A stretch of 51,861 bases of DNA from an uncultured Victivallales bacterium (GCA_964544115.1 CAZJBP010000002.1:1-51861), one strand, 5' to 3'. Shown: positions 24,346 to 35,787, counted from the stretch's first letter. Numbers and translations are program-made. Notes: generated from the letters alone by a model not told the origin.

Positions 24346-24890
24346 AGTGCGCGGATCCGTTTGAGTTCGTCCGCGAGCCGCCGCATGGCGTGGTGAAGTA
24401 TATACCCCACGTTGCTGACCGACAGCCCCGTAATGTCGCTGATCTCCTTGTAGGACTTCTCTTCGTAGACCTTCAGGATGACCAGTTGCCGGTCGCGGAG
24501 GGGCAGCGACTGAAGGGCCGCCGCCACCTGTTCAGCCGCCTCGCTGAGATGAAACCCCTCGCCGCAGTTGGGGCCGACATGCTCGGGTTGTTCCACCGCG
24601 TGCCGCTGGTGCAATTCGCGGCGGCGAGTCTCGTTGCGGAGGTGGTCCACGGCGCAGTTGTGGGCCACGCGGTACAGCCAGGCTGAGATCTGCGGCGATG
24701 GCGACAGGGGGTCTGTCCATCGGCGGTAGAGGCGAATGAACGCGTTCTGGACCACGTCCTGGGCGAGGTCGTCGCTCGCAACCATGCGGCGCACATACCG
24801 CAACAGCGGCGCCTCGTACGTCTCGACGACGGCCGCGAAGTCCCGCAGGCGATCACCGTCGCCGGAATGAGTATTGGCGCGGTCCGTCAT
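24342..24890 (-). CDS. ECF RNA polymerase sigma-70 factor
   Basis: AQDVVQNAF, AWLYRVAHNCAVDHLR, SYKEIS region 4. Confidence 0.92.
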   Translation of the reverse strand: MTDRANTHSGDGDRLRDFAAVVETYEAPLLRYVRRMVASDDLAQDVVQNAFIRLYRRWTDPLSPSPQISAWLYRVAHNCAVDHLRNETRRRELHQRHAVEQPEHVGPNCGEGFHLSEAAEQVAAALQSLPLRDRQLVILKVYEEKSYKEISDITGLSVSNVGYILHHAMRRLADELKRIRAL

Positions 24891-25315
24891 CCGGTCGCAC
24901 TCTTAATCTCCACGCCGGCCTTCCCATCCCCGTAGGGAACCTCGCCCTCGTACACACGATCGGCGGAGTTGCTGCGGATCAGACCTACCAGCATGGAGAC
25001 AATCTGCACCAGCCGCTCCTTGCCGGGTATGGCCGCCGCGTTGGCCAAGTGCTTTCTGGCAACCAGCACATCCAAGCAGGCAGCACATTCCAGGGCTGAG
25101 CCACGGGCGATGTCGAAGAACCGACATCGATCCGGGGCGGTGTATTTGCCGTTACCCTCGGCGATATTCAGGGGAATCGAAGTGGATGCCCGGTCGAGTT
25201 GGTCGCGGACGGATATGGATTTCGGTATGGTTGGCAGGACTTCATCAACCCACGCAACGAACGTGACGGCCTGCTGGTACACCTTGAGCTTCTCGTGATC
25301 GAACATAACGCTCAT
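24887..25315 (-). CDS. Four-helix-bundle protein (23S rRNA IVP / bAvd-like family)
   Basis: FDHEKLKVYQ, DQLDRASTSIPLNIAEG, FFDIARGSALEC. Confidence 0.9.
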   Translation of the reverse strand: MSVMFDHEKLKVYQQAVTFVAWVDEVLPTIPKSISVRDQLDRASTSIPLNIAEGNGKYTAPDRCRFFDIARGSALECAACLDVLVARKHLANAAAIPGKERLVQIVSMLVGLIRSNSADRVYEGEVPYGDGKAGVEIKSATG

Positions 25316-25352
25316 GCGCTCAGGCTAGAGTTGGATGGAAGGTGGAGGGGAG

Positions 25353-25449
25353 GATTAGGATTAAGAGTAAGAGTAAGAGTAAGATTAGGAGTGGGAGAGG
25401 GGCAACATGACGCTCTCTCTTACTCCTAATCTTACTCGTAATCTTAATC
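25353..25449. repeat. Inverted arrays of a degenerate hexamer (GAKTAR) forming a hairpin
   Basis: Left arm GATTAG GATTAA GAGTAA GAGTAA GAGTAA GATTAG GAGTGG; the right arm is an approximate reverse complement. Confidence 0.85.
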
Positions 25450-25468
25450 ACCCACGCCCACGCCTTCC

Positions 25469-27934
25469 TCAATCCGCCAGCCACTTCATGTTGCGGACGA
25501 AGAACTTGCCGGTGTAGGAGTCGCGCACGACCGTGGCCACGGCCCGCTGTTCCCCCACCACCGTCTTGCCGTCGCGCCCGACGGCCTGGGATGCGATGAG
25601 GATGGTGAAGATGTTCTGGCGGAAGGAGAGCAGCTCGATGAGCCCCCGACCGACCGCCTCCTGCAGAATGTCGTTTGTCTTGTAGCCGCTTCCCATGATG
25701 CCGGTGATGCATTGCCGCATCGCCACGGCGACGGGTCCACCATTGTCCAGCGGTTCATCCGGTGCAGAGGTGGCCCCGGAATCGAACAAATCCTGCCACT
25801 GCTTACAGCCATTCAACGAGTCCGCACGCGCCTGAACCTTTGCGACCAAGTTGGTGATCCACGCATAACTGACGGGGTTGATGTTTCCCATGTAGGGGCC
25901 CCAGTCAATCGCGCCGTCCGCGTCCGTATCGGCGGGCCGGAGCCCGTTCACCAGCGTTTCGAGAGTCTTCTTCTGGCGCGTATTGATCGTGATGCGCCCG
26001 CGGCAGGAGCGGTTCACGGCGCGAACGGTCAGCATGTCAATGAGTTTGGCGCCTTCCTTCTTGTTCAGCAGGTCGATGTTCCTCCAGAAGGCCCAGTCGT
26101 AATAGAGAGCGGTGGAACTGTACGGGGCTTCATCGTCCATGTTCGTGCGGTAGATATGTCCAATTTCAGCAACGTTCCGCATGGGCTGGTTCGCAAACCA
26201 GATGGGGTATCCCTGGGACTTAGGCGTCTTGAAGAAGGTGCAGAAACTGGTGTCGTTGTAGTTGGTCAGCGTGTTGGAATACGGGGCGATGGACCCGGGT
26301 CCGCCGAACCGCCTGCCGCTAGGGTACGTGGTGGTAGGGTATCCCCCCACCGTGGGATCCCAATATCGACACTGTCCGTTCATGCGGGGGTCGTTGATCT
26401 GGTAGTCCACAGGCGCGAATTCGAACTTCTTCAGCGCGCGTTGCACGGGATTGCCGGGTTCGTCGCTCTGGCGATATCCCATCGATTCGTCAACCACATT
26501 GGTCACCGGCGACCCGCCTCCGCTGGGGGTGTCGACCTTCAGGACGCGAGCGAGGAACCATACGGCGTTGGAGGAAGAGATGGGCAGGGCAGCATTCTTT
26601 GGCGGCGGAAATGCTACGTAGGGTGAGGCCGATGTGTCGTACACGCGGAACTCCGTCGGGGTCCCGAACGTCATGCCGTCGATGTTGAACAGGTAGCGCC
26701 TCCAGGCGGAGTTCATAATGACGTTTTCCGCCGGTGCCGTTGCCGCGGTGAAGTTGTTGGAGAACACCCCAATCTGAAGCTTGAACCCATCCCCGCTGGC
26801 GACGTTCGTGGGGATGAACGGATACCAGAGTTCCACCCTGAACCTGTACTTGTACGTCGGGGCTCCGGAGACTTGATCAAAGACTATCTCGTTGATGAGC
26901 GGAACGCACTCCGTTCCCTCCGTGTGTCGGTAGGAGTAGGGGTTGCCGTTCTGCGGGATACGGTTGGGGTCCAGGTAATTCACCACGTTCCAGGCGACGT
27001 CGATCTTCTTACTGTCCGGCATCTCCGGAAGCGCCGCCCCGAGAATGTTTCCAAGGGGGGTGAGATAATTGGCCATGAACAGCGGGTCGGACAGGTAGGC
27101 GCCCGGCGTCGTCATGTTCCAGAAGCAGGCATAGTTCGTGATCGAGTTGATGTTGAACTTCGGGATCAGGACGGCGGAGGCGCTGCCGAGCTGGTTGGTG
27201 TTTTGCAGGTAGACGTCCGGGCCCGGGTCGTAGGAGGTCGGGAACAGCACCGGGGCCTCGGCCGGGTCGGCGACGGTGATGCCGTAGATTTCCTGCAGGG
27301 TTTCGTAGCGCTTGTGCCGTACCGTGCGGTTCGACACAAACGTGCTCGCGTCGGCGGTCGGGACGAAGAGATTCGAGGGGTCGATCTCGGCGGTTGTCGC
27401 GCTGTCGATACGAGGCTTGCCGCCGATGTAGCTGGCGTCGAGCAGGCCCGAGGTGTTGACGATCAGGTACGCCACGCGACCGTTGGTCTGCACGATGCCG
27501 CCGTCATTGGTGACAAGAACGTTCTTCCACTTTGGGGTGCGGGCGAACGCATTCGCGTACAGAGACGGGGGGATGGTGTTCGTGGCTTCGCCTACCATCA
27601 GGATGCAGACGTTCGTCGAAGTGTTCGTCGATGACAGCGCGTCTCGCGGGTAGGGGGCGGTAAGGCCCGGGCTGGAAAAGAGTTTCCAGTCCGGATATGT
27701 GCGGCCGACGCAGGTCCTGGTCACGTCATCCATGCCTTGCTGGAGCCCGGTGTAGATGAGCTGCTTGGAGCGGACGAGGTTCAGGTAATTGCGGGCGGCC
27801 ATGCTTTCCACGCGCATGGCGATCGCGAACGCGACGGCCAGCAGCGTCAGCACGGCCAGCAGGCCGATCGTGATGATCAGGGCCACGCCCTGCCGGCCCT
27901 TTCGGCGGTTTGCCGCTATGCGGGAAATGTGCAT
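25469..27934 (-). CDS. Large PilX/GspK-like minor pilin-type protein
   Basis: MHISRIAANRRKGRQG|VALIITIGLLAVLTLLAVAF; GRVAYLI, KFNIN, PLINE, GRITINT motifs; start follows the upstream stop. Confidence 0.75.
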   Translation of the reverse strand: MHISRIAANRRKGRQGVALIITIGLLAVLTLLAVAFAIAMRVESMAARNYLNLVRSKQLIYTGLQQGMDDVTRTCVGRTYPDWKLFSSPGLTAPYPRDALSSTNTSTNVCILMVGEATNTIPPSLYANAFARTPKWKNVLVTNDGGIVQTNGRVAYLIVNTSGLLDASYIGGKPRIDSATTAEIDPSNLFVPTADASTFVSNRTVRHKRYETLQEIYGITVADPAEAPVLFPTSYDPGPDVYLQNTNQLGSASAVLIPKFNINSITNYACFWNMTTPGAYLSDPLFMANYLTPLGNILGAALPEMPDSKKIDVAWNVVNYLDPNRIPQNGNPYSYRHTEGTECVPLINEIVFDQVSGAPTYKYRFRVELWYPFIPTNVASGDGFKLQIGVFSNNFTAATAPAENVIMNSAWRRYLFNIDGMTFGTPTEFRVYDTSASPYVAFPPPKNAALPISSSNAVWFLARVLKVDTPSGGGSPVTNVVDESMGYRQSDEPGNPVQRALKKFEFAPVDYQINDPRMNGQCRYWDPTVGGYPTTTYPSGRRFGGPGSIAPYSNTLTNYNDTSFCTFFKTPKSQGYPIWFANQPMRNVAEIGHIYRTNMDDEAPYSSTALYYDWAFWRNIDLLNKKEGAKLIDMLTVRAVNRSCRGRITINTRQKKTLETLVNGLRPADTDADGAIDWGPYMGNINPVSYAWITNLVAKVQARADSLNGCKQWQDLFDSGATSAPDEPLDNGGPVAVAMRQCITGIMGSGYKTNDILQEAVGRGLIELLSFRQNIFTILIASQAVGRDGKTVVGEQRAVATVVRDSYTGKFFVRNMKWLAD

Positions 27935-27935
27935 A

Positions 27936-28907
27936 TTATCGCTCCTTGTATCCGTCCCTGTTGGTGAAGTACACGCGCGCCACGTGGCGTACGACGCGGT
28001 CCGCGACAAAGTTGGTGTAAGACAACCCCCGCAGCTGCAGGTCGGCCGCCTGGCGCGCATCCCGGTCGTTGAGCAGCTCGATGCAGACGTCCACGTAGCC
28101 GGGAAGCCGGTTGGTGTAGGCGGGGGTGCCGCTGTAGTAATCCCGGATGAGTTGTCCGTTCGGCTTGCGGGCGAACACGGCGAAGCCGGCCACGTTCTTG
28201 GCGATGAAGCGGCTGGTGCCGGGACGGCCGACGCCGCCATCCGCCGTATTCTTGTACCAGTTCGGGTTGAAATAGCAGTGGCTTGACGCGCTGGCCGCGT
28301 CGCTGAGCGCGCTGGAGTAATACCCCCGCATCAGCTCGTAGCGCTTGCTCCCGGCCGGGTTCTCCCGGACATAGTAAAACACCTCCCGTGCCGCCCGGTT
28401 TCCGTCGCTCGAATCGTTCTCGATCGAGACGAAGCAGGTTTCGTCGTTCTCAAAGCCATAGGATGTGAGGCTGTAGCGGTCCTTCTGGGCGATGAACGTG
28501 AGCGTCTTGTCCGCCACCGCGTACTGCAGGTCGTGCGCGATCATGCTCAGCGCGGCACGGCCAGCCAGGTTGTTGTCCGACCGGTTGGTGCCCAGCGTCC
28601 AGGCGCGGTCGCTTTCGGTGAAGATGCGGCCCATGATGGTGACGATGATGACCAGGATCGTAACCGCGGCGAGCAGCTCGATGAGGGTGAACGCCGCGCG
28701 GCCGAGGGCGCGCAGCGAGATCCCTCGCTGCGCTCGGGATGACAAGCCAAGCGAATGAACGGCTGGACCTCGCTGCGCTCGGGATGACAAACCGGCCGCA
28801 TGGCCTTGCTGCGCTCGGGACACGTGCAGCAGGCTCGTAGCGCCTGCTGTACAGCGGGGGCTACGAACCCGCTGGGTTCTTGCCGATGGGCGATTGCCGA
28901 ATCTCAT
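27936..28907 (-). CDS. Prepilin-type (GspJ/PilW-like) protein with a REP-expanded 72-aa leader
   Basis: A|FTLIELLAAVTILVII; GGAGGA SD 7 nt before ATG 28907. Confidence 0.82.
   Translation of the reverse strand: MRFGNRPSARTQRVRSPRCTAGATSLLHVSRAQQGHAAGLSSRAQRGPAVHSLGLSSRAQRGISLRALGRAAFTLIELLAAVTILVIIVTIMGRIFTESDRAWTLGTNRSDNNLAGRAALSMIAHDLQYAVADKTLTFIAQKDRYSLTSYGFENDETCFVSIENDSSDGNRAAREVFYYVRENPAGSKRYELMRGYYSSALSDAASASSHCYFNPNWYKNTADGGVGRPGTSRFIAKNVAGFAVFARKPNGQLIRDYYSGTPAYTNRLPGYVDVCIELLNDRDARQAADLQLRGLSYTNFVADRVVRHVARVYFTNRDGYKER
28717..28823 (-). repeat. REP-like cluster: full copy 28717-28744, partial copies 28768-28789 and 28804-28823
   Basis: GAGATCCCTCGCTGCGCTCGGGATGACA and truncated tandem copies. 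Confidence 0.92.
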
Positions 28908-28941
28908 GTGCCGATCCTCCATGGGCCGGGTGGCGGCCGCC

Positions 28942-29700
28942 TCACAGTCCGCCGGACATCGGGTATTCCGTCGAGAACGTCAGCGCCTTATCGAGTGGTG
29001 TCACCCCGTACTGCCCTTCCCAGATGTTCATCCGCACCCGCATCTTGCGGTTGGTCCAGACGACCGTCGGCGACACCGGCGGATAAGAGACCACCATGAT
29101 GACCGGGTCGACCTTGATCTTGTAGCGGAGCGAGTGGTTGACCACGCCGGTCAGTGCCGACAGTCGCAGATCGAAATTGGTGAACACTGCGGTGTGCGGC
29201 CCACCGGCGCCCCACACGCGGACGTAGTTGGTGGAGGGCGGGGACCAGGGGCCGCCGGGATAACTCACCTCGTACTGCCAGAGCGGCCCGCCGGCCACCG
29301 GCAATTGGATGCCCCCGCTGCTGAAGCCCGTCCAGAAGGTCAGCCACGCCGCAGAACCCGCTTCAATGGCCTGCTCGTTGCGCGTGCGCAGGCTGTTGAA
29401 GACGTCGTCGGCAAAAATGGCGGCGCGGGTCTCGGACACGGCCTTGGCGCTGGAGTCAAGCCCCGTGCCGATCAGCGCGAACGCGGCGAGGACACCGACG
29501 GCCACGACGACCACCGACAGCGCGACCTCGACGAGCGTGAAGCCGCCGCGAGATCCCTCGCTGCGCTCGGGATGACAGGATGGCCCAACCGGTCGCTGGG
29601 CCTCGCTGCGCCCGGAGTAGCGCTGACCGCCGCCTTTGTCATCCCGAACGCAGTGAGGGATCTCCGTATTCCGCCTGAAAGTTGTGCGTGGCGTATGCAT
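28942..29700 (-). CDS. Prepilin-type (GspI/PilV-like) protein with a REP-expanded 53-aa leader
   Basis: G|FTLVEVALSVVVVAVG; leader contains EIPHCVRDD and CHPERSEGS. Confidence 0.82.
   Translation of the reverse strand: MHTPRTTFRRNTEIPHCVRDDKGGGQRYSGRSEAQRPVGPSCHPERSEGSRGGFTLVEVALSVVVVAVGVLAAFALIGTGLDSSAKAVSETRAAIFADDVFNSLRTRNEQAIEAGSAAWLTFWTGFSSGGIQLPVAGGPLWQYEVSYPGGPWSPPSTNYVRVWGAGGPHTAVFTNFDLRLSALTGVVNHSLRYKIKVDPVIMVVSYPPVSPTVVWTNRKMRVRMNIWEGQYGVTPLDKALTFSTEYPMSGGL
29550..29664. repeat. REP-like cluster: full 29550-29577, partial 29601-29620, inverted full 29637-29664
   Basis: Inverted pair of the 28-bp consensus with an internal partial copy. Confidence 0.92.
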
Positions 29701-29704
29701 GGCT

Positions 29705-30412
29705 TTACTCGCTCTTCTGAATCGTTCCGGTCAATCGAAAGACCTGGACCGTCGATGAGATGAAGTTGGCCGCGCGGCCCGCTTCGTAGAGGACGATCGT
29801 TCTCTGGTCTCCAGTCCAGTCGGCGGTTGAGGCAACGTCAATCGCGCTGCCGTCGAGTCTGAAGCCGATCGACCAGGGCCCGAACACCGGCGTGCCGTAG
29901 GCCGGGCTATTCGACAGGACAACCCCCTCGGCGAAGAAATTGGTGGTTCCCATGACGCCGTCGACGGCATTGCTCAGGTAGTAATAGCTTCGTTGGGGCG
30001 GGGATCCGGGCGCCGCGAGAGGGGCCGGCACGTTGCCGTAAACCATGTAGGTGCGCACACGGTGCGTGACGGTATGCTGGCGAGTCTGGTTGAACGCCGA
30101 GCGGAACACCAGGGTTGAGGCGCGCATTTTACTCCCGCGACCGAGGTCAACGAAGGCGAACAGGGCCATGCCCATGAGCAGCATCATGATCGCGAGGACC
30201 ATGAGGATTTCGATCAGGGTGAAGCCCTGGCGGAGATCCCTCGCTGCGCTCGGGATGACACGACTGGCGATGGAGCGGCTGGGCCTCGCTGCGCTCGGGA
30301 TGACACGACCGGCGAACGAGCGGCTGGGCCTCGCTGCGCTCGGGATGACACGCGGCCGCCCGCCTGTCATCCCGAACGAAGTGAGGGATCTCCTCGGTTG
30401 TGCGGTCCTCAT
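29705..30412 (-). CDS. Prepilin-type (GspH/FimT-like) protein with a REP-expanded ~63-aa leader
   Basis: G|FTLIEILMVLAIM; IGFRLDGS; leader has three VIPSAAR; TGATG overlap with the upstream gene (alternative start 30424). Confidence 0.82.
   Translation of the reverse strand: MRTAQPRRSLTSFGMTGGRPRVIPSAARPSRSFAGRVIPSAARPSRSIASRVIPSAARDLRQGFTLIEILMVLAIMMLLMGMALFAFVDLGRGSKMRASTLVFRSAFNQTRQHTVTHRVRTYMVYGNVPAPLAAPGSPPQRSYYYLSNAVDGVMGTTNFFAEGVVLSNSPAYGTPVFGPWSIGFRLDGSAIDVASTADWTGDQRTIVLYEAGRAANFISSTVQVFRLTGTIQKSE
30233..30392. repeat. REP-like cluster: full 30233-30260, partials 30284-30305 and 30329-30350, inverted full 30365-30392
   Basis: 45-bp periodic tandem plus an inverted partner. Confidence 0.93.
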
Positions 30413-31068
30413 CACGGTTTCCATGAATAGACCCTCGTTTCTTCGCTGGCGGGGTCGCTACCCCAGGACATGACGCACACGTTCTCCCGGACAACGTTGG
30501 TGTCTACGTTGTAGGTGCCCGAAGGGAGGGTGATCGAAGCGACCAGATGTGTCGTTCCGTCGCCATTCTCATCCATGGAGATCGCGAACGGGTTGCCCCA
30601 GGGATCGAGAAGGACGCCATCGGCGTCAAGTTCCATATCCTTGAGTTCAAAGAAGACCGTGTGGCGCGGGTTGTTGGTCAGTTTGCTGATCACGGTTTCC
30701 GGGGCAACAATCTGGTCGTTGAGTCCCTGGGTCTGTCCGGGCAGTTTGCCGTAGGTTCCGCGGTAGTTCTTTGCGGCTTCCACCACGGCCAGGGCCGTGG
30801 ACCTTGCCTGCTTGCGCTTGGCCGCCTGGCGCACCGCGTGGGCGGCGGGCAGGAGCATGGCCGCGAGGATCGCGATGATGGCGACGACGATGAGGAGCTC
30901 CAGGAGCGTGAAACCGCGCCGCGCCGCGAGATCCCTCGCTGCGCTCGGGATGACATGACGGCCTGACCGTCCGCTGGGCCTCACGTGGCGGGGGGTGACC
31001 AGAAGACTGCGCGCGCTGCTGCTCCTGTCATCCCGAGCGTAGCGAGGGATCTCGTCATGCTCTATCAT
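30412..31068 (-). CDS. Prepilin-type protein with a REP-expanded 52-aa leader
   Basis: G|FTLLELLIVVAIIAIL; LDPWGNP; ATGA overlap; leader has EIPRYARDD and VIPSAARDL. Confidence 0.85.
   Translation of the reverse strand: MIEHDEIPRYARDDRSSSARSLLVTPRHVRPSGRSGRHVIPSAARDLAARRGFTLLELLIVVAIIAILAAMLLPAAHAVRQAAKRKQARSTALAVVEAAKNYRGTYGKLPGQTQGLNDQIVAPETVISKLTNNPRHTVFFELKDMELDADGVLLDPWGNPFAISMDENGDGTTHLVASITLPSGTYNVDTNVVRENVCVMSWGSDPASEETRVYSWKP
30928..31053. repeat. REP-like cluster: full 30928-30955, degenerate 30979-31000, inverted full 31026-31053
   Basis: Inverted pair of the 28-bp consensus. Confidence 0.92.
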
Positions 31069-31655
31069 TGCCAGCTCCCGATGATGTAGTTGGGGTCGTC
31101 GGGCTCCAGGTCGGGGTTGACCGTCCAGACCACCACCGTGCGCTGGACGTTGTTCGTCAGCGGCGACTCCACCGACACGGGCGTCGATGGGGATCCGGGG
31201 ATGATATTGTTGTAGTCCATGTCGAACATGGAGTAGTAGAAGCGATCCCTGCCGGCCGCGTCGTCCATCTCGGCATCCGTCAGGTCGGTGTCCGCCCAGG
31301 GCGTCACCGGCGAGCCGCTGGCGTTAAGCCGCTTGAACTCAAGGAAGCGCAGGCGGCGCGGGTTGTTCGCCGCGTCGGCTTCGCCGCGCGTCAGCAGGGC
31401 GCCCACGGCGCCCTGGATGCGCACGAAGTCCGAGGTGTAAGTCAGCATCGGCGGCCATTTCTCGTACTCGGAGTAGTACTGTCGCCACGCCGCCTCGATC
31501 TGCTTGACCTCGGTGCGGGCTGCCGCGACCTTCGCGTGTTTGCGGACCATGGCCACGGCGGGTAGCAGCAGGGCCGCCAGCATCAGCACGATCGCGATGA
31601 CGATGAGCATCTCAATCAGAGTGAAGCCAGTGTGGCGTGTCGCTCGCATAGTCAT
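31065..31655 (-). CDS. Prepilin-type protein (short leader)
   Basis: MTMRATRHTG|FTLIEMLIVIAI; paralog of 31652-32212. Confidence 0.85.
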   Translation of the reverse strand: MTMRATRHTGFTLIEMLIVIAIVLMLAALLLPAVAMVRKHAKVAAARTEVKQIEAAWRQYYSEYEKWPPMLTYTSDFVRIQGAVGALLTRGEADAANNPRRLRFLEFKRLNASGSPVTPWADTDLTDAEMDDAAGRDRFYYSMFDMDYNNIIPGSPSTPVSVESPLTNNVQRTVVVWTVNPDLEPDDPNYIIGSWQ

Positions 31656-32212
31656 TCCTGCCAGTTTCCGATGATCCATCTGTCACTGCCCTCGTCGGCG
31701 TCGTCATTGACCGTCCACACGATCACGCTCTGGTGCACTGCGCCCGTGGTCGGCATGTCCCACGCGGGTGCGCCGGTGGTGGTGGCCGGAATCGTGTTGT
31801 CGAAGTTCGCGTCGAATATGGCGTAGTAGTAATGCTTCTCCGGCGTGGCGGCGTCGTCGACCTCGGGGTTGCCCCAGGGGCTGATGGGGTTCGTGCTGGT
31901 GTTGAAGCGCTTGAAATTCATGAACCGCATCCGGCGCGGATTGTCTGCGGTGAGGGCACCCGCCGTGAGGGCCTGGGCAACGGCGCCGGAGATGCGCACC
32001 GGCGCCTCGGTGGTCACAAAGGAGGGCCAGCGCTGGTACTCGGCGTAGTAGTGCTTCCAGGCGGCGGTAATGTTCTCGATTTCGGACTTGGCGCTCACTT
32101 TGCGGGCGTATGCGCGGGCCATTCCGACGGCCGGAATCAGCATCCCTGCCAGCACCATGATGATGCTGATCACGATCAGCATCTCGATCAGCGTAAAGCC
32201 TCGTCGGTTCAT
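31652..32212 (-). CDS. Prepilin-type protein (short leader)
   Basis: MNRRG|FTLIEMLIVISII. Confidence 0.88.
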   Translation of the reverse strand: MNRRGFTLIEMLIVISIIMVLAGMLIPAVGMARAYARKVSAKSEIENITAAWKHYYAEYQRWPSFVTTEAPVRISGAVAQALTAGALTADNPRRMRFMNFKRFNTSTNPISPWGNPEVDDAATPEKHYYYAIFDANFDNTIPATTTGAPAWDMPTTGAVHQSVIVWTVNDDADEGSDRWIIGNWQE

Positions 32213-32631
32213 CAGAACTTCCCTGCGATGATGTTGTCCGCGTCCGCCTCAGGCGGCGGCGACTCCGCCCGGTCGGTGCCCTTCGAGTAGAGTTTGTAGG
32301 ACTTGCGATTGGCGGAGGGGATGTAGCGATAGGCTTGACCCCACGGGTCGAGGAAGGTGAAGCCGTCGCGGATGTAGGTCACCAGGTTGTTCGTCCAGGT
32401 GGGCCCGGGGGGAAGGGTGCCGACATCCATCTGGTAGTTGACCAGCGCCGTGCGGATCGTCTCGATGTCCGCCTTGGTCTTGGCCTCCAGGTTGGCCCGG
32501 TGCGCGTAGGCCACCACGCCCAGAATCATGGCCATCAGGATGCCAATGATGAGGATCACGGCCAGCAATTCAATGAGCGTGAAGCCCGACGCTGACCGAT
32601 TCACGCCCCGCACTGAACCTCGCGCTGCCAT
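32212..32631 (-). CDS. GspG-like major pseudopilin
   Basis: G|FTLIELLAVILIIGIL; ALVNYQMDVGTLP; LDPWGQAYRY; LYSKG. Confidence 0.85.
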   Translation of the reverse strand: MAARGSVRGVNRSASGFTLIELLAVILIIGILMAMILGVVAYAHRANLEAKTKADIETIRTALVNYQMDVGTLPPGPTWTNNLVTYIRDGFTFLDPWGQAYRYIPSANRKSYKLYSKGTDRAESPPPEADADNIIAGKF

Positions 32632-32716
32632 GCCACACCCCTTCCTTGACGCCCCCACTATAGGATAGGCCGGCGAGCGGAGTCAACGCGGCCACCGTAA
32701 AGATTCAGTAAAGGGT

Positions 32717-32860
32717 GAGATTCCTCACTGCGCTCGGGATGACACGTTCCCGAATGGGGCTTCGCGACGACCATGAGATCCCTCACTGCGTTCGGGATGA
32801 CCAAATCGCCCTTTGGCCGCTCGATCCAGCCGTGTCATCCCGAACGCAGTGAGGGATCTC
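32717..32860. repeat. REP-like triplet downstream of the GIY-YIG gene (32717, 32775, inverted 32833)
   Basis: Three 28-bp copies starting 58 nt apart; the last supplies the GIY-YIG TGA stop. Confidence 0.93.
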
Positions 32861-33200
32861 CCTTGTTCCAGCCCTCGGCCTTGTGCCACCCCTGGGCTGG
32901 CGCCGGGCCCAAGCCAAGGATGGTTTCGCCCAGGTCCGCCCACGCCGGGTTGTCCCGCTCGATCAAGGCCACCTTCTTCTCCCTCCGCCAGCCCTTCAGT
33001 TGCTTCTCCCGCGCGATGGCGTCCCGGATGTCATTAAAACGCCCGAAATACACAAGCCGGCTCAGGTTGTATCGGCAGGTAAATCCGTCGACTTCGGCCG
33101 CACGGTGCTGGGAGACGCGCCGCACAAGGCTGTTGGTCACCCCGACATACAGCGTCGAATGACCTTTGTTGGTCATGATGTAGACGTAGTACTCGGACAT
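32835..33200 (-). CDS. GIY-YIG nuclease family protein (small, stand-alone)
   Basis: YYVYIM...LYVGVT..L.RRVSQH...GFT.RY...LVYF...AIAREKQLKGWRREKKVALIE..NP.W.DL. Confidence 0.93.
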   Translation of the reverse strand: MSEYYVYIMTNKGHSTLYVGVTNSLVRRVSQHRAAEVDGFTCRYNLSRLVYFGRFNDIRDAIAREKQLKGWRREKKVALIERDNPAWADLGETILGLGPAPAQGWHKAEGWNKGDPSLRSG

Positions 33201-33225
33201 GCGACCCCCTTGCGTCCCTGTCGCG

Positions 33226-33376
33226 GAGATCCCTCGCTACGCTCGGGATGACACGCTGCTTGGTCTATGGCGGCGCCCTCTTCCAGATCCCTCGCTGCGC
33301 TCGGGATGACCCTTGCGCCTGTCGCCGTCCGGGGGCCGTTCACGGCCGCCGTCATCCCGAGCGCAGCGAGGGATCT

Positions 33377-33377
<1 letters not shown>
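33226..33377. repeat. REP-like triplet upstream of the GIY-YIG gene (33226, 33284, inverted 33350)
   Basis: Same direct-direct-inverted architecture as the downstream triplet. Confidence 0.93.

Positions 33378-35787
<2,410 letters not shown>

Follow-up and report, generated by a model that had tools for sequence, protein, structure and literature searches.

In-frame arrays of a hairpin repeat in the predicted leaders of four consecutive prepilin genes of an uncultured Victivallales bacterium

Four consecutive prepilin genes with repeat arrays in their leaders

We analysed a stretch of 51,861 nucleotides from an uncultured Victivallales bacterium (GCA_964544115.1 CAZJBP010000002.1:1-51861, hereafter the window), which is contig C2 of a source assembly of 3.77 Mb and 66% GC in 321 contigs. 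Its minus strand carries eight genes with prepilin-type N-termini in a compact operon (25469–32631), in which the starts overlap or abut the preceding stops and almost no intergenic DNA is left. In four consecutive genes of this operon, numbered 1–4 by ascending coordinate, arrays of a 28-nt hairpin repeat (the 28-mer) lie in frame between the start codon and the predicted prepilin peptidase site, that is, in the DNA for the leader. These genes and their arrays are as follows.

30412–31068, minus strand: gene 4, GspG-like prepilin; PF07963 32.1 bits, TIGR01710 52.4 bits (below cut-off); 52-codon leader
30928–31053, minus strand: gene 4 leader array; inverted arm, degenerate unit, exact proximal 28-mer
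29705–30424, minus strand: gene 3, GspH-like prepilin; PF07963 30.6 bits, TIGR01708 30.4 bits (below cut-off); 67-codon leader
30233–30392, minus strand: gene 3 leader array; inverted arm and three direct units at 45-nt spacing (45, 45)
28942–29700, minus strand: gene 2, PilV/GspI-like prepilin; PF07963 19.3 bits (below cut-off), TIGR02532 16.5 bits; 53-codon leader
29550–29664, minus strand: gene 2 leader array; inverted arm, degenerate unit, exact proximal 28-mer
27936–28922, minus strand: gene 1, GspJ-like prepilin; PF07963 17.7 bits (below cut-off), TIGR02532 18.5 bits; 77-codon leader, Ala at −1
28717–28826, minus strand: gene 1 leader array; three direct units (exact, five-mismatch, degenerate), no inverted arm; upper bound approximate, taken from the alignment
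28826–28876, minus strand: in the gene 1 leader, a doublet from another hairpin-repeat family unrelated to the 28-mer (blastn and pattern counts)

A motif scan placed Phe at +1, Glu at +5 and a run of ~20 hydrophobic residues in all four proteins, with Gly at −1 in three of them and Ala in one; Ala at this position is common among the homologues of gene 1, a family of 879 matches. All four match PF07963, two above the cut-off of 21.2 bits (30.6 and 32.1) and two below it (17.7 and 19.3), and all four score above the TIGR02532 cut-off of 16.3 bits (18.5, 16.5, 19.0 and 33.6). The Phe+1 codons start at 28691, 29541, 30223 and 30912 in genes 1, 2, 3 and 4 respectively. Counted from the first in-frame ATG, the stop-free leaders of genes 1–4 are 77, 53, 67 and 52 codons long, and that of gene 1 is 72 codons from its second ATG; a first-pass annotation of this DNA gave a range of 52–72 residues. 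The prepilin leader is cytoplasmic and is cut on the cytoplasmic side, and the documented lengths are 6–26 residues (PMC4471445); the leaders of genes 1–4, at 52–77 codons, lie outside this range. The leaders of the repeat-free genes of the same operon have about 5–16 residues. Leaders of gene 1 homologues have a median length of 13 residues and a 95th percentile of ~41 (123 of 150 proteins scored, the other 27 being dropped when the motif pattern found no cleavage site), and none of the 123 carries the 28-mer in its leader.

The mature parts of genes 1–4 are stop-free and equal in length to those of their orthologues. They show GC contents at third codon positions (GC3) of 0.80–0.88 together with 0.43–0.50 at second positions (GC2), gene 4 having a mature GC3 of 0.80. 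The leaders have a GC3 of 0.65–0.78 and flat first- and second-position values, and the codon-position signature of the mature parts is absent from them.

The copy nearest to the cleavage site, the proximal copy, has an identical orientation in all four genes and ends 25, 8, 9 and 15 nt before the Phe+1 codon in genes 1–4. Coordinates thus bear out the positions and orientation first reported, and likewise no copy was found at up to three mismatches in any mature region of the four genes. The earlier count of three to four copies per gene holds when truncated and degenerate units are included, and only then.

Comparison with two sister genera (G003 and G001), in which the same operon is found in the same gene order, fixed the starts of these genes. 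In gene 4 the ATG at 31068 and the upstream stop overlap exactly as they do in both relatives, and the gene 3 ATG at 30424 has the same position within the last codons of the upstream gene as in both. As these start codons are common to the sister genera and the arrays lie downstream of them, the arrays are placed after the ancestral start and before the Gly/Ala(−1)–Phe(+1) site. All four leader arrays are in frame and open from the upstream, synteny-defined ATG.

In none of the four genes does an in-frame ATG, GTG or TTG follow the point where the proximal copy begins, in agreement with the first-pass statement that none lies between the last repeat and the cleavage site. Gene 1 has an in-frame TTG at 28745 that directly abuts the proximal copy, from which the leader could be only 18 residues long with the copy still translated. 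An in-frame GTG at 30984 offers gene 4 an alternative start with a 24-residue leader, and in gene 2 the ATG at 29700 is the sole in-frame canonical start. On the reading frames, initiation at a non-canonical codon aside, at least the proximal copy would be translated in each gene. Among the four genes this copy is found in each of the three reading frames. We take this, together with the retained frame, the 15-codon unit of the leader arrays, the one-unit difference of the allele P0001 (both described below) and the missing codon-position signature, as signs of selection for an open frame and not for a particular peptide.

Structure and genomic distribution of the 28-mer

The window contains 13 matches to the 28-mer at up to three mismatches compared with 0.00 in 100 shuffles, seven of them in 28717–31053 and six around 32717–33377. 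Genome-wide there are five exact copies, 47 at up to three mismatches and 76 at up to five; of the five exact copies, those at 28717, 29550, 30233 and 30928 are leader-proximal. Across 45 distinct copies the stem positions are 91–100% paired, compared with 21–45% when the partner is shifted, and double changes occur at four stem pairs (pair 12–18 is A-T in 19 copies and G-C in 20). The middle of the hairpin is an invariant tandem G-A/A-G. The genome also has 14 dispersed inverted doublets with spacers of ~21–23 nt. A search of 28500–33600 against Rfam returned a single match, to a family of plant microRNAs, whose 28.5 bits fall short of the gathering score (268); we judged it to be due to chance.

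The copies form 51 clusters, mostly in non-coding-like gaps; the sorting into coding and non-coding was made by a crude codon-position GC scan, free of gene calls, and is used qualitatively. Two further open reading frames (ORFs) contain a single in-frame copy, each apparently in a linker region: a squalene-hopene cyclase ORF with a Pfam match to the C-terminal domain (G000:C102:705-732) and a glycosyltransferase-like ORF (G000:C190:3615-3642).

Anatomy and common derivation of the leader arrays

Alignment of the six arrays of the window revealed a common plan, in which an inverted copy is followed by a spacer, at least one direct unit and, at the end, a complete direct copy. Three of the four leader arrays are bounded by inverted arms of 28–32 nt with 93–94% complementarity; the pair is 32 nt and 94% complementary in gene 4, and 28 nt, 93% and 59 nt apart in gene 2. 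The leader arrays have a period of 45 nt (15 codons) because their inner units share a 13-nt deletion, whereas the two arrays beside a nuclease gene upstream of the operon (described below) have a period of 58 nt. The derived unit with the 13-nt deletion occurs genome-wide in these four leaders only. Thus the four leader arrays are copies of one another and not independent assemblies.

The two hairpins of the second family in the gene 1 leader have 22 and nine genome matches at up to four mismatches. A tie between this family and the Y1 transposase gene of the genome was considered and dropped, as the contig of that gene contains no copy. No common flank motif was seen at the arrays.

RNA folding gave −90.2 kcal/mol for the gene 4 array (z −3.62) and −108.5 kcal/mol for the gene 3 array (z −4.76), each better than all 200 shuffles. 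A promoter and terminator scan found nothing at the leader arrays.

Empty alleles, variant alleles and persistence

The first-pass annotation had proposed that relatives be searched for empty short-leader alleles, and such alleles were found in G001, G003, P0003, P0126 and P0127. The G001 orthologues of the four genes have leaders of 11, 11, 15 and 9 residues and no arrays, and comparable genes of G003 have leaders of 29 and 11 residues. P0003 is an empty allele of gene 3 with an 11-residue leader, and P0126 (20 residues) and P0127 (11 residues) are empty alleles of gene 2.

Filled alleles vary as well. The gene 3 allele P0001 contains four 15-residue units instead of three. A second species, the source of P0002, P0005 and P0125, was compared at the protein level: P0002, with 68% overall identity, has a gene 3 leader with the same inverted arm, spacer and direct copy as here; P0125, related to gene 2, has a leader of 25 residues in which one copy is read in the frame seen here; and P0005, related to gene 4, has no copy of the 28-mer family. 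Inspection of the 19 sequences fetched from 120 listed gene 4 relatives showed no 28-mer repeat in any leader. The predicted leaders of P0005 and of P0128, a gene 2 relative, are 21 and 77 residues long and contain other repeat-like or internally duplicated peptides. The leaders of this clade may host several repeat families. In G001 (locus L015, ~870–960) a variant-loop doublet of the 28-mer repeat separates the first G-type pseudopilin gene from the second, and an in-frame ATG in its inverted copy could start a 22-residue leader.

The stretch is present in 20 public runs from 14 lake and freshwater studies. Other runs yielded DNA contigs that span the gene 1 leader and the junctions with 0 differences, one of them covering 28600–29573, and identical full-length proteins are on record for gene 4 from three contigs and for gene 2 from seven. 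Some run contigs had looked like cassette deletions or rearrangements; the letters between their joints are the spacers of doublets at other genomic loci, and since these spacers are identical to those of the dispersed doublets, the joints are mapping effects rather than rearrangements.

Occurrence of the arrangement

By the motif scan, four of the 23 prepilin-like genes of the genome have a repeat copy within 30 nt upstream, all four in this one operon. Among 64 genomes of the order, the repeat followed after 3–45 nt by a prepilin motif was found in this genome only, four times; the repeat itself occurs in seven of the 64, with 50 exact-pattern copies here, 11 in one other genome and one or two in each of five.

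A stricter exact pattern searched in ~185,000 species genomes returned three further stretches, of which one is real; the other two (L024 and L025) are not pilin genes. The real case is a gammaproteobacterial metagenome-assembled genome (MAG) with 22 exact-pattern copies of the repeat, in which one exact 28-mer lies between the gspG stop and a GspH-like cleavage site (L023, 3476–3528), in the same frame as in gene 1 and with a possible GTG start formed partly by the repeat. A metagenome scan for the repeat-plus-prepilin pattern returned 0 stretches, and a protein-based search of a metagenome collection for relatives of gene 3 found none. The arrangement is therefore local and not a very general habit of the repeat. 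The leader-specificity proposed at first does not survive these counts, given four of 23 prepilin-like genes, most clusters in gaps, at least two other ORFs with an in-frame copy and no second case among the 64 genomes.

A GIY-YIG nuclease gene bracketed by the same repeat

The remaining six matches of the window surround a small gene ~2 kb upstream of the leader arrays.

32717–32860, minus strand: array of the repeat with a period of 58 nt, between the promoter-like site of the operon and the GIY-YIG gene
32835–33200, minus strand: small GIY-YIG nuclease gene (PF01541, 53.8 bits) bracketed by inverted copies of the repeat
33226–33377, minus strand: repeat array upstream of the GIY-YIG gene; 58-nt period

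Homologues of this nuclease with 59–68% identity are present in seven other genomes of the order (eight loci). We scanned ten loci for bracketing copies at up to five mismatches to the core, namely these eight, the one described here and a distant one (35% identity). The bracket, a direct copy upstream and an inverted copy downstream, was found in six of the ten, the present locus included, and a seventh has the upstream copy only; the bracketing copies in the relatives have a variant loop. In this genome one of six GIY-YIG matches is flanked by the repeat, and six of the seven arrays with the same arm order lie within 4.7 kb of the GIY-YIG gene. The single Y1 match of the genome (PF01797) is on contig C56, which holds no copy of the repeat. 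The association between the repeat and the GIY-YIG gene is suggestive, not proven. By analogy, the bracketed gene may be a GIY-YIG counterpart of the arrangement of REP-associated tyrosine transposases (RAYT; REP, repetitive extragenic palindrome) and their REPINs. We found no description of REPIN-like repeats bracketing GIY-YIG genes in a limited literature collection.

Proposed origin of the leader arrays and alternative explanations

We favour, as the probable explanation, that an element resembling REPs or MITEs (miniature inverted-repeat transposable elements) underwent local spread and persisted solely in places where it is tolerated by a leader that is cleaved off. The hairpin-repeat arrays that bracket the GIY-YIG gene would be the local source, with the encoded enzyme as the putative mobiliser, and the element would have spread from there into the leader-coding DNA of the four consecutive prepilin genes. 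As the operon has almost no intergenic DNA, the leader would be the only place in it that tolerates extra bases, and ~110–160 of them could survive solely in this hydrophilic cytoplasmic segment that prepilin peptidase removes. Only insertions that keep the frame open would be retained. Translation would then run from the old start codons through the repeats, giving a leader of 52–77 residues, and the peptidase would release a normal mature pseudopilin, so that the insertions may be nearly neutral. A prepilin peptidase gene is present in the genome (PF01478, 71.9 bits; G000:C22:17658-18008). The second repeat family in the gene 1 leader speaks for the proposal, as it makes more than one tenant. 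The idea of the leader as a 'safe harbour', put forward in the first-pass annotation, is in line with the in-frame insertions, the conserved starts, the empty alleles, the persistence across a species split and in lake populations, and the peptidase gene, and has to be narrowed in one respect, as it does not describe a general leader-specific habit of the repeat.

Several observations weigh against this explanation. The leaders, at 52–77 residues, may be longer than the peptidase accepts, the documented ones having 6–26 residues (PMC4471445). Four of the 51 clusters fall in ~0.2 kb of leader DNA out of 3.77 Mb, and therefore a passive filter alone is insufficient and local copying is needed; the unit with the 13-nt deletion, being common to the leaders, shows such copying among them. 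The inverted arms fold into 28-bp stems within the coding region, which probably affects expression. In P0002 the arms of gene 3 are conserved (nine of nine and eight of nine residues) and the spacer has diverged, suggesting constraint or ongoing homogenization rather than neutrality. Inspection of the flanks showed no target-site duplication and no homology past the arrays, although no formal search for duplications was made. The link between the repeat and the GIY-YIG gene is positional only, and in the gammaproteobacterial MAG a different pair of hairpins flanks the closest GIY-YIG homologue (48% identity). Finally, the sole hint of expression is a set of contigs from two RNA libraries of one sample, which span the leader repeats and the ends of the upstream genes; as RNA libraries can contain DNA, this is only a weak hint of transcription.

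The main competing explanation, which we regard as possible but unlikely, is that the hairpins of the leaders have been taken over as RNA regulators. Stems that begin 15–36 nt after the starts would set the ratio of major to minor pseudopilins by lowering or coupling translation or by protecting the upstream mRNA, and cleavage of the leader would spare the mature protein. REP hairpins in operons stabilize upstream mRNA, and several properties of the arrays fit such a role, namely the strong folds of the gene 4 and gene 3 arrays (z −3.62 and −4.76), the covariation of stem pairs across the genome copies, the start of the arrays at the fourth gene of the operon after three repeat-free G-type genes, and the gene 3 arms that are conserved between species while the spacer has diverged. 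However, the same operon of the sister genera is without any array, and the second species has none in its gene 4 relative P0005 and only one copy in its gene 2 relative P0125. Within the present operon gene 1 has no inverted arm and hosts the second repeat family, copy number differs between alleles, and no terminator-like site was detected at the arrays. Conserved arms in the second species thus favour this explanation, and variability between genes, alleles and species opposes it. A wider version appears to us more doubtful still, in which the leaders are a compartment for RNA-level regulation whose hairpins, derived from an undescribed GIY-YIG counterpart of RAYT/REPIN, were recruited to set the translation or mRNA stability of minor pseudopilins, with the peptidase removing every trace of them from the protein.

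The leaders might instead have been targets rather than places of survival, if a nuclease or transposase recognizes the conserved 5' end of prepilin genes. The independent GspH-like case in the gammaproteobacterial MAG, in the same frame as gene 1, would fit, as would the single copy of P0125 in the frame of gene 2. We consider this very unlikely all the same: the distances to Phe+1 vary (8–25 nt), the flanks have no common motif or duplication, 19 of the 23 prepilin-like genes are repeat-free, most copies are not near pilin genes, and the exact pattern gave a single real further case among ~185,000 species genomes, with none from the metagenome scan. Even less probable, in our judgement, is a role as recombination handles, in which inverted copies bracket the segments for the mature pilins and breaks made by the nuclease drive cassette exchange or conversion. 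The order of direct copy, mature part and inverted copy does recur along the operon, as around the GIY-YIG gene, and the four identical 28-mers with their common derived unit mean that sequence was copied between leaders. Gene order and orthology are nevertheless the same in G001 and G003, we saw neither silent nor alternative pilin cassettes, and the contig joints are mapping effects. We therefore found no sign of the cassette swapping that the first-pass annotation had offered as an alternative.

Least probable of all is an artefact or decay, with misassembly at the repeats or dead genes with leaders that are open by chance in a GC-rich genome. It is true that the assembly is in 321 contigs, that short-read contigs of other runs break at exact 28-mers and that stops are rare at 66% GC. 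Against this, the full-length proteins of genes 4 and 2 recur identically in three and seven contigs, the alleles P0001 and P0002 independently show the same link between leader and mature part, and the contig of another run bridges 28600–29573 with 0 differences. The frame was moreover defined relative to starts fixed by synteny rather than picked in hindsight, and the mature parts have a strong coding signature.

Comparison with known systems

Palindromic repeats inserted in frame in ORFs are known, some of which extend the 5' ends of genes, with the Rickettsia palindromic element (RPE) cited as an example in PMC3184786. The arrays described here resemble RPE, BRE, BOX and RUP in being short palindromic repeats that lie in frame in coding genes without destroying them, the likeness to RPE being one of arrangement and not of compared sequence. 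They differ from RPE-type insertions in lying in a segment predicted to be discarded by proteolysis, in four consecutive paralogous genes and as arrays of 15-codon units. Of repeat arrays housed in cleavable prepilin leaders we found no description in a limited literature collection.

The covarying 28-nt hairpin, the dispersed inverted doublets, the regularly spaced arrays and the one flanked protein gene are features shared with REP, REPIN and BIME sequences. Unlike in the REP/RAYT system, the flanked gene encodes a GIY-YIG nuclease and not a Y1 transposase. MITEs such as the Correia elements and dRS3 of Neisseria are small non-coding elements bounded by inverted repeats and often found near or inside surface-structure loci. 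The terminal inverted repeats of three of the four leader arrays are MITE-like, and the GIY-YIG gene bracketed by the same inverted copies, here and in relatives, would be a candidate for an autonomous partner. Compared with Correia elements and dRS3, the present arrays differ in that no target-site duplication was seen on inspection of the flanks, no transposase partner is known and no evidence of pilin recombination was found.

Among prepilins the nearest parallels are those of the type IVb and Flp kinds, whose class III signal peptide includes a hydrophilic leader of greater length, still cut by prepilin peptidase on the cytoplasmic side (PMC4471445). Those leaders, however, have native sequence and at most ~26–30 residues, whereas the leaders of genes 1–4 have 52–77, and consist of repeat DNA, those of the orthologues having 9–29.

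If the long leaders are translated and cleaved, prepilin peptidases would tolerate leaders two to three times longer than any documented. The class III signal peptide would then be a place where mobile DNA persists inside genes at little cost, and programs for gene calling or pilin prediction would misjudge such genes where they presuppose short leaders. The operon also tests, in nature, how large a cytoplasmic N-terminal load a pilin can bear. The GIY-YIG gene repeatedly bracketed by doublet-forming hairpins hints at a nuclease-associated analogue of REPIN/RAYT.

Remainder of the operon and neighbouring genes

The other members of the operon and its promoter-like site are listed below.

32657–32686, minus strand: promoter-like site directly upstream of the operon; consensus match only (10 of 12 positions)
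32212–32631, minus strand: first G-type pseudopilin gene; PF08334 and PF07963 matches; repeat-free; leader of ~16 residues
31652–32212, minus strand: second G-type pseudopilin gene; PF07963 34.0 bits; repeat-free; 5-residue leader
31065–31655, minus strand: third G-type pseudopilin gene; PF07963 28.0 bits; repeat-free; 10-residue leader
25469–27934, minus strand: large last gene in a GspK-like position; repeat-free ORF

The promoter-like site is the sole one on the minus strand in 25000–33600, with none inside the operon, and its flanking sequence is similar to that of the G003 locus. The start of the first G-type gene was placed manually at the first ATG after this site, that of the third overlaps the stop of the upstream gene, and that of the large last gene was placed manually one base past the gene 1 stop. 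No Pfam family was found for the large last gene, which has a weak N-terminal match to TIGR02600 (16.9 bits, far under the cut-off). Matches of the operon to the Verru_Chthon cassette families (TIGR02596/98/99 and TIGR02600) involve N-terminal parts only and reach 16.9–35.9 bits against cut-offs of 51–332, so that none attains its cut-off. In the last four genes (25469–30424) these weak, sub-cut-off N-terminal matches are to Verru_Chthon proteins D, B, C and A, in that order.

Downstream of the operon, a gene for a 23S rRNA-intervening-sequence (four-helix-bundle) protein lies at 24887–25315 (PF05635, 80.6 bits), and beside it is a simple-sequence tract (~25320–25430) that in several frames gives runs made up of one or two residues. 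On the other side, the outer repeat array has directly upstream of it a gene of the SdiA-regulated family (33377–34273; PF06977, 207 bits).

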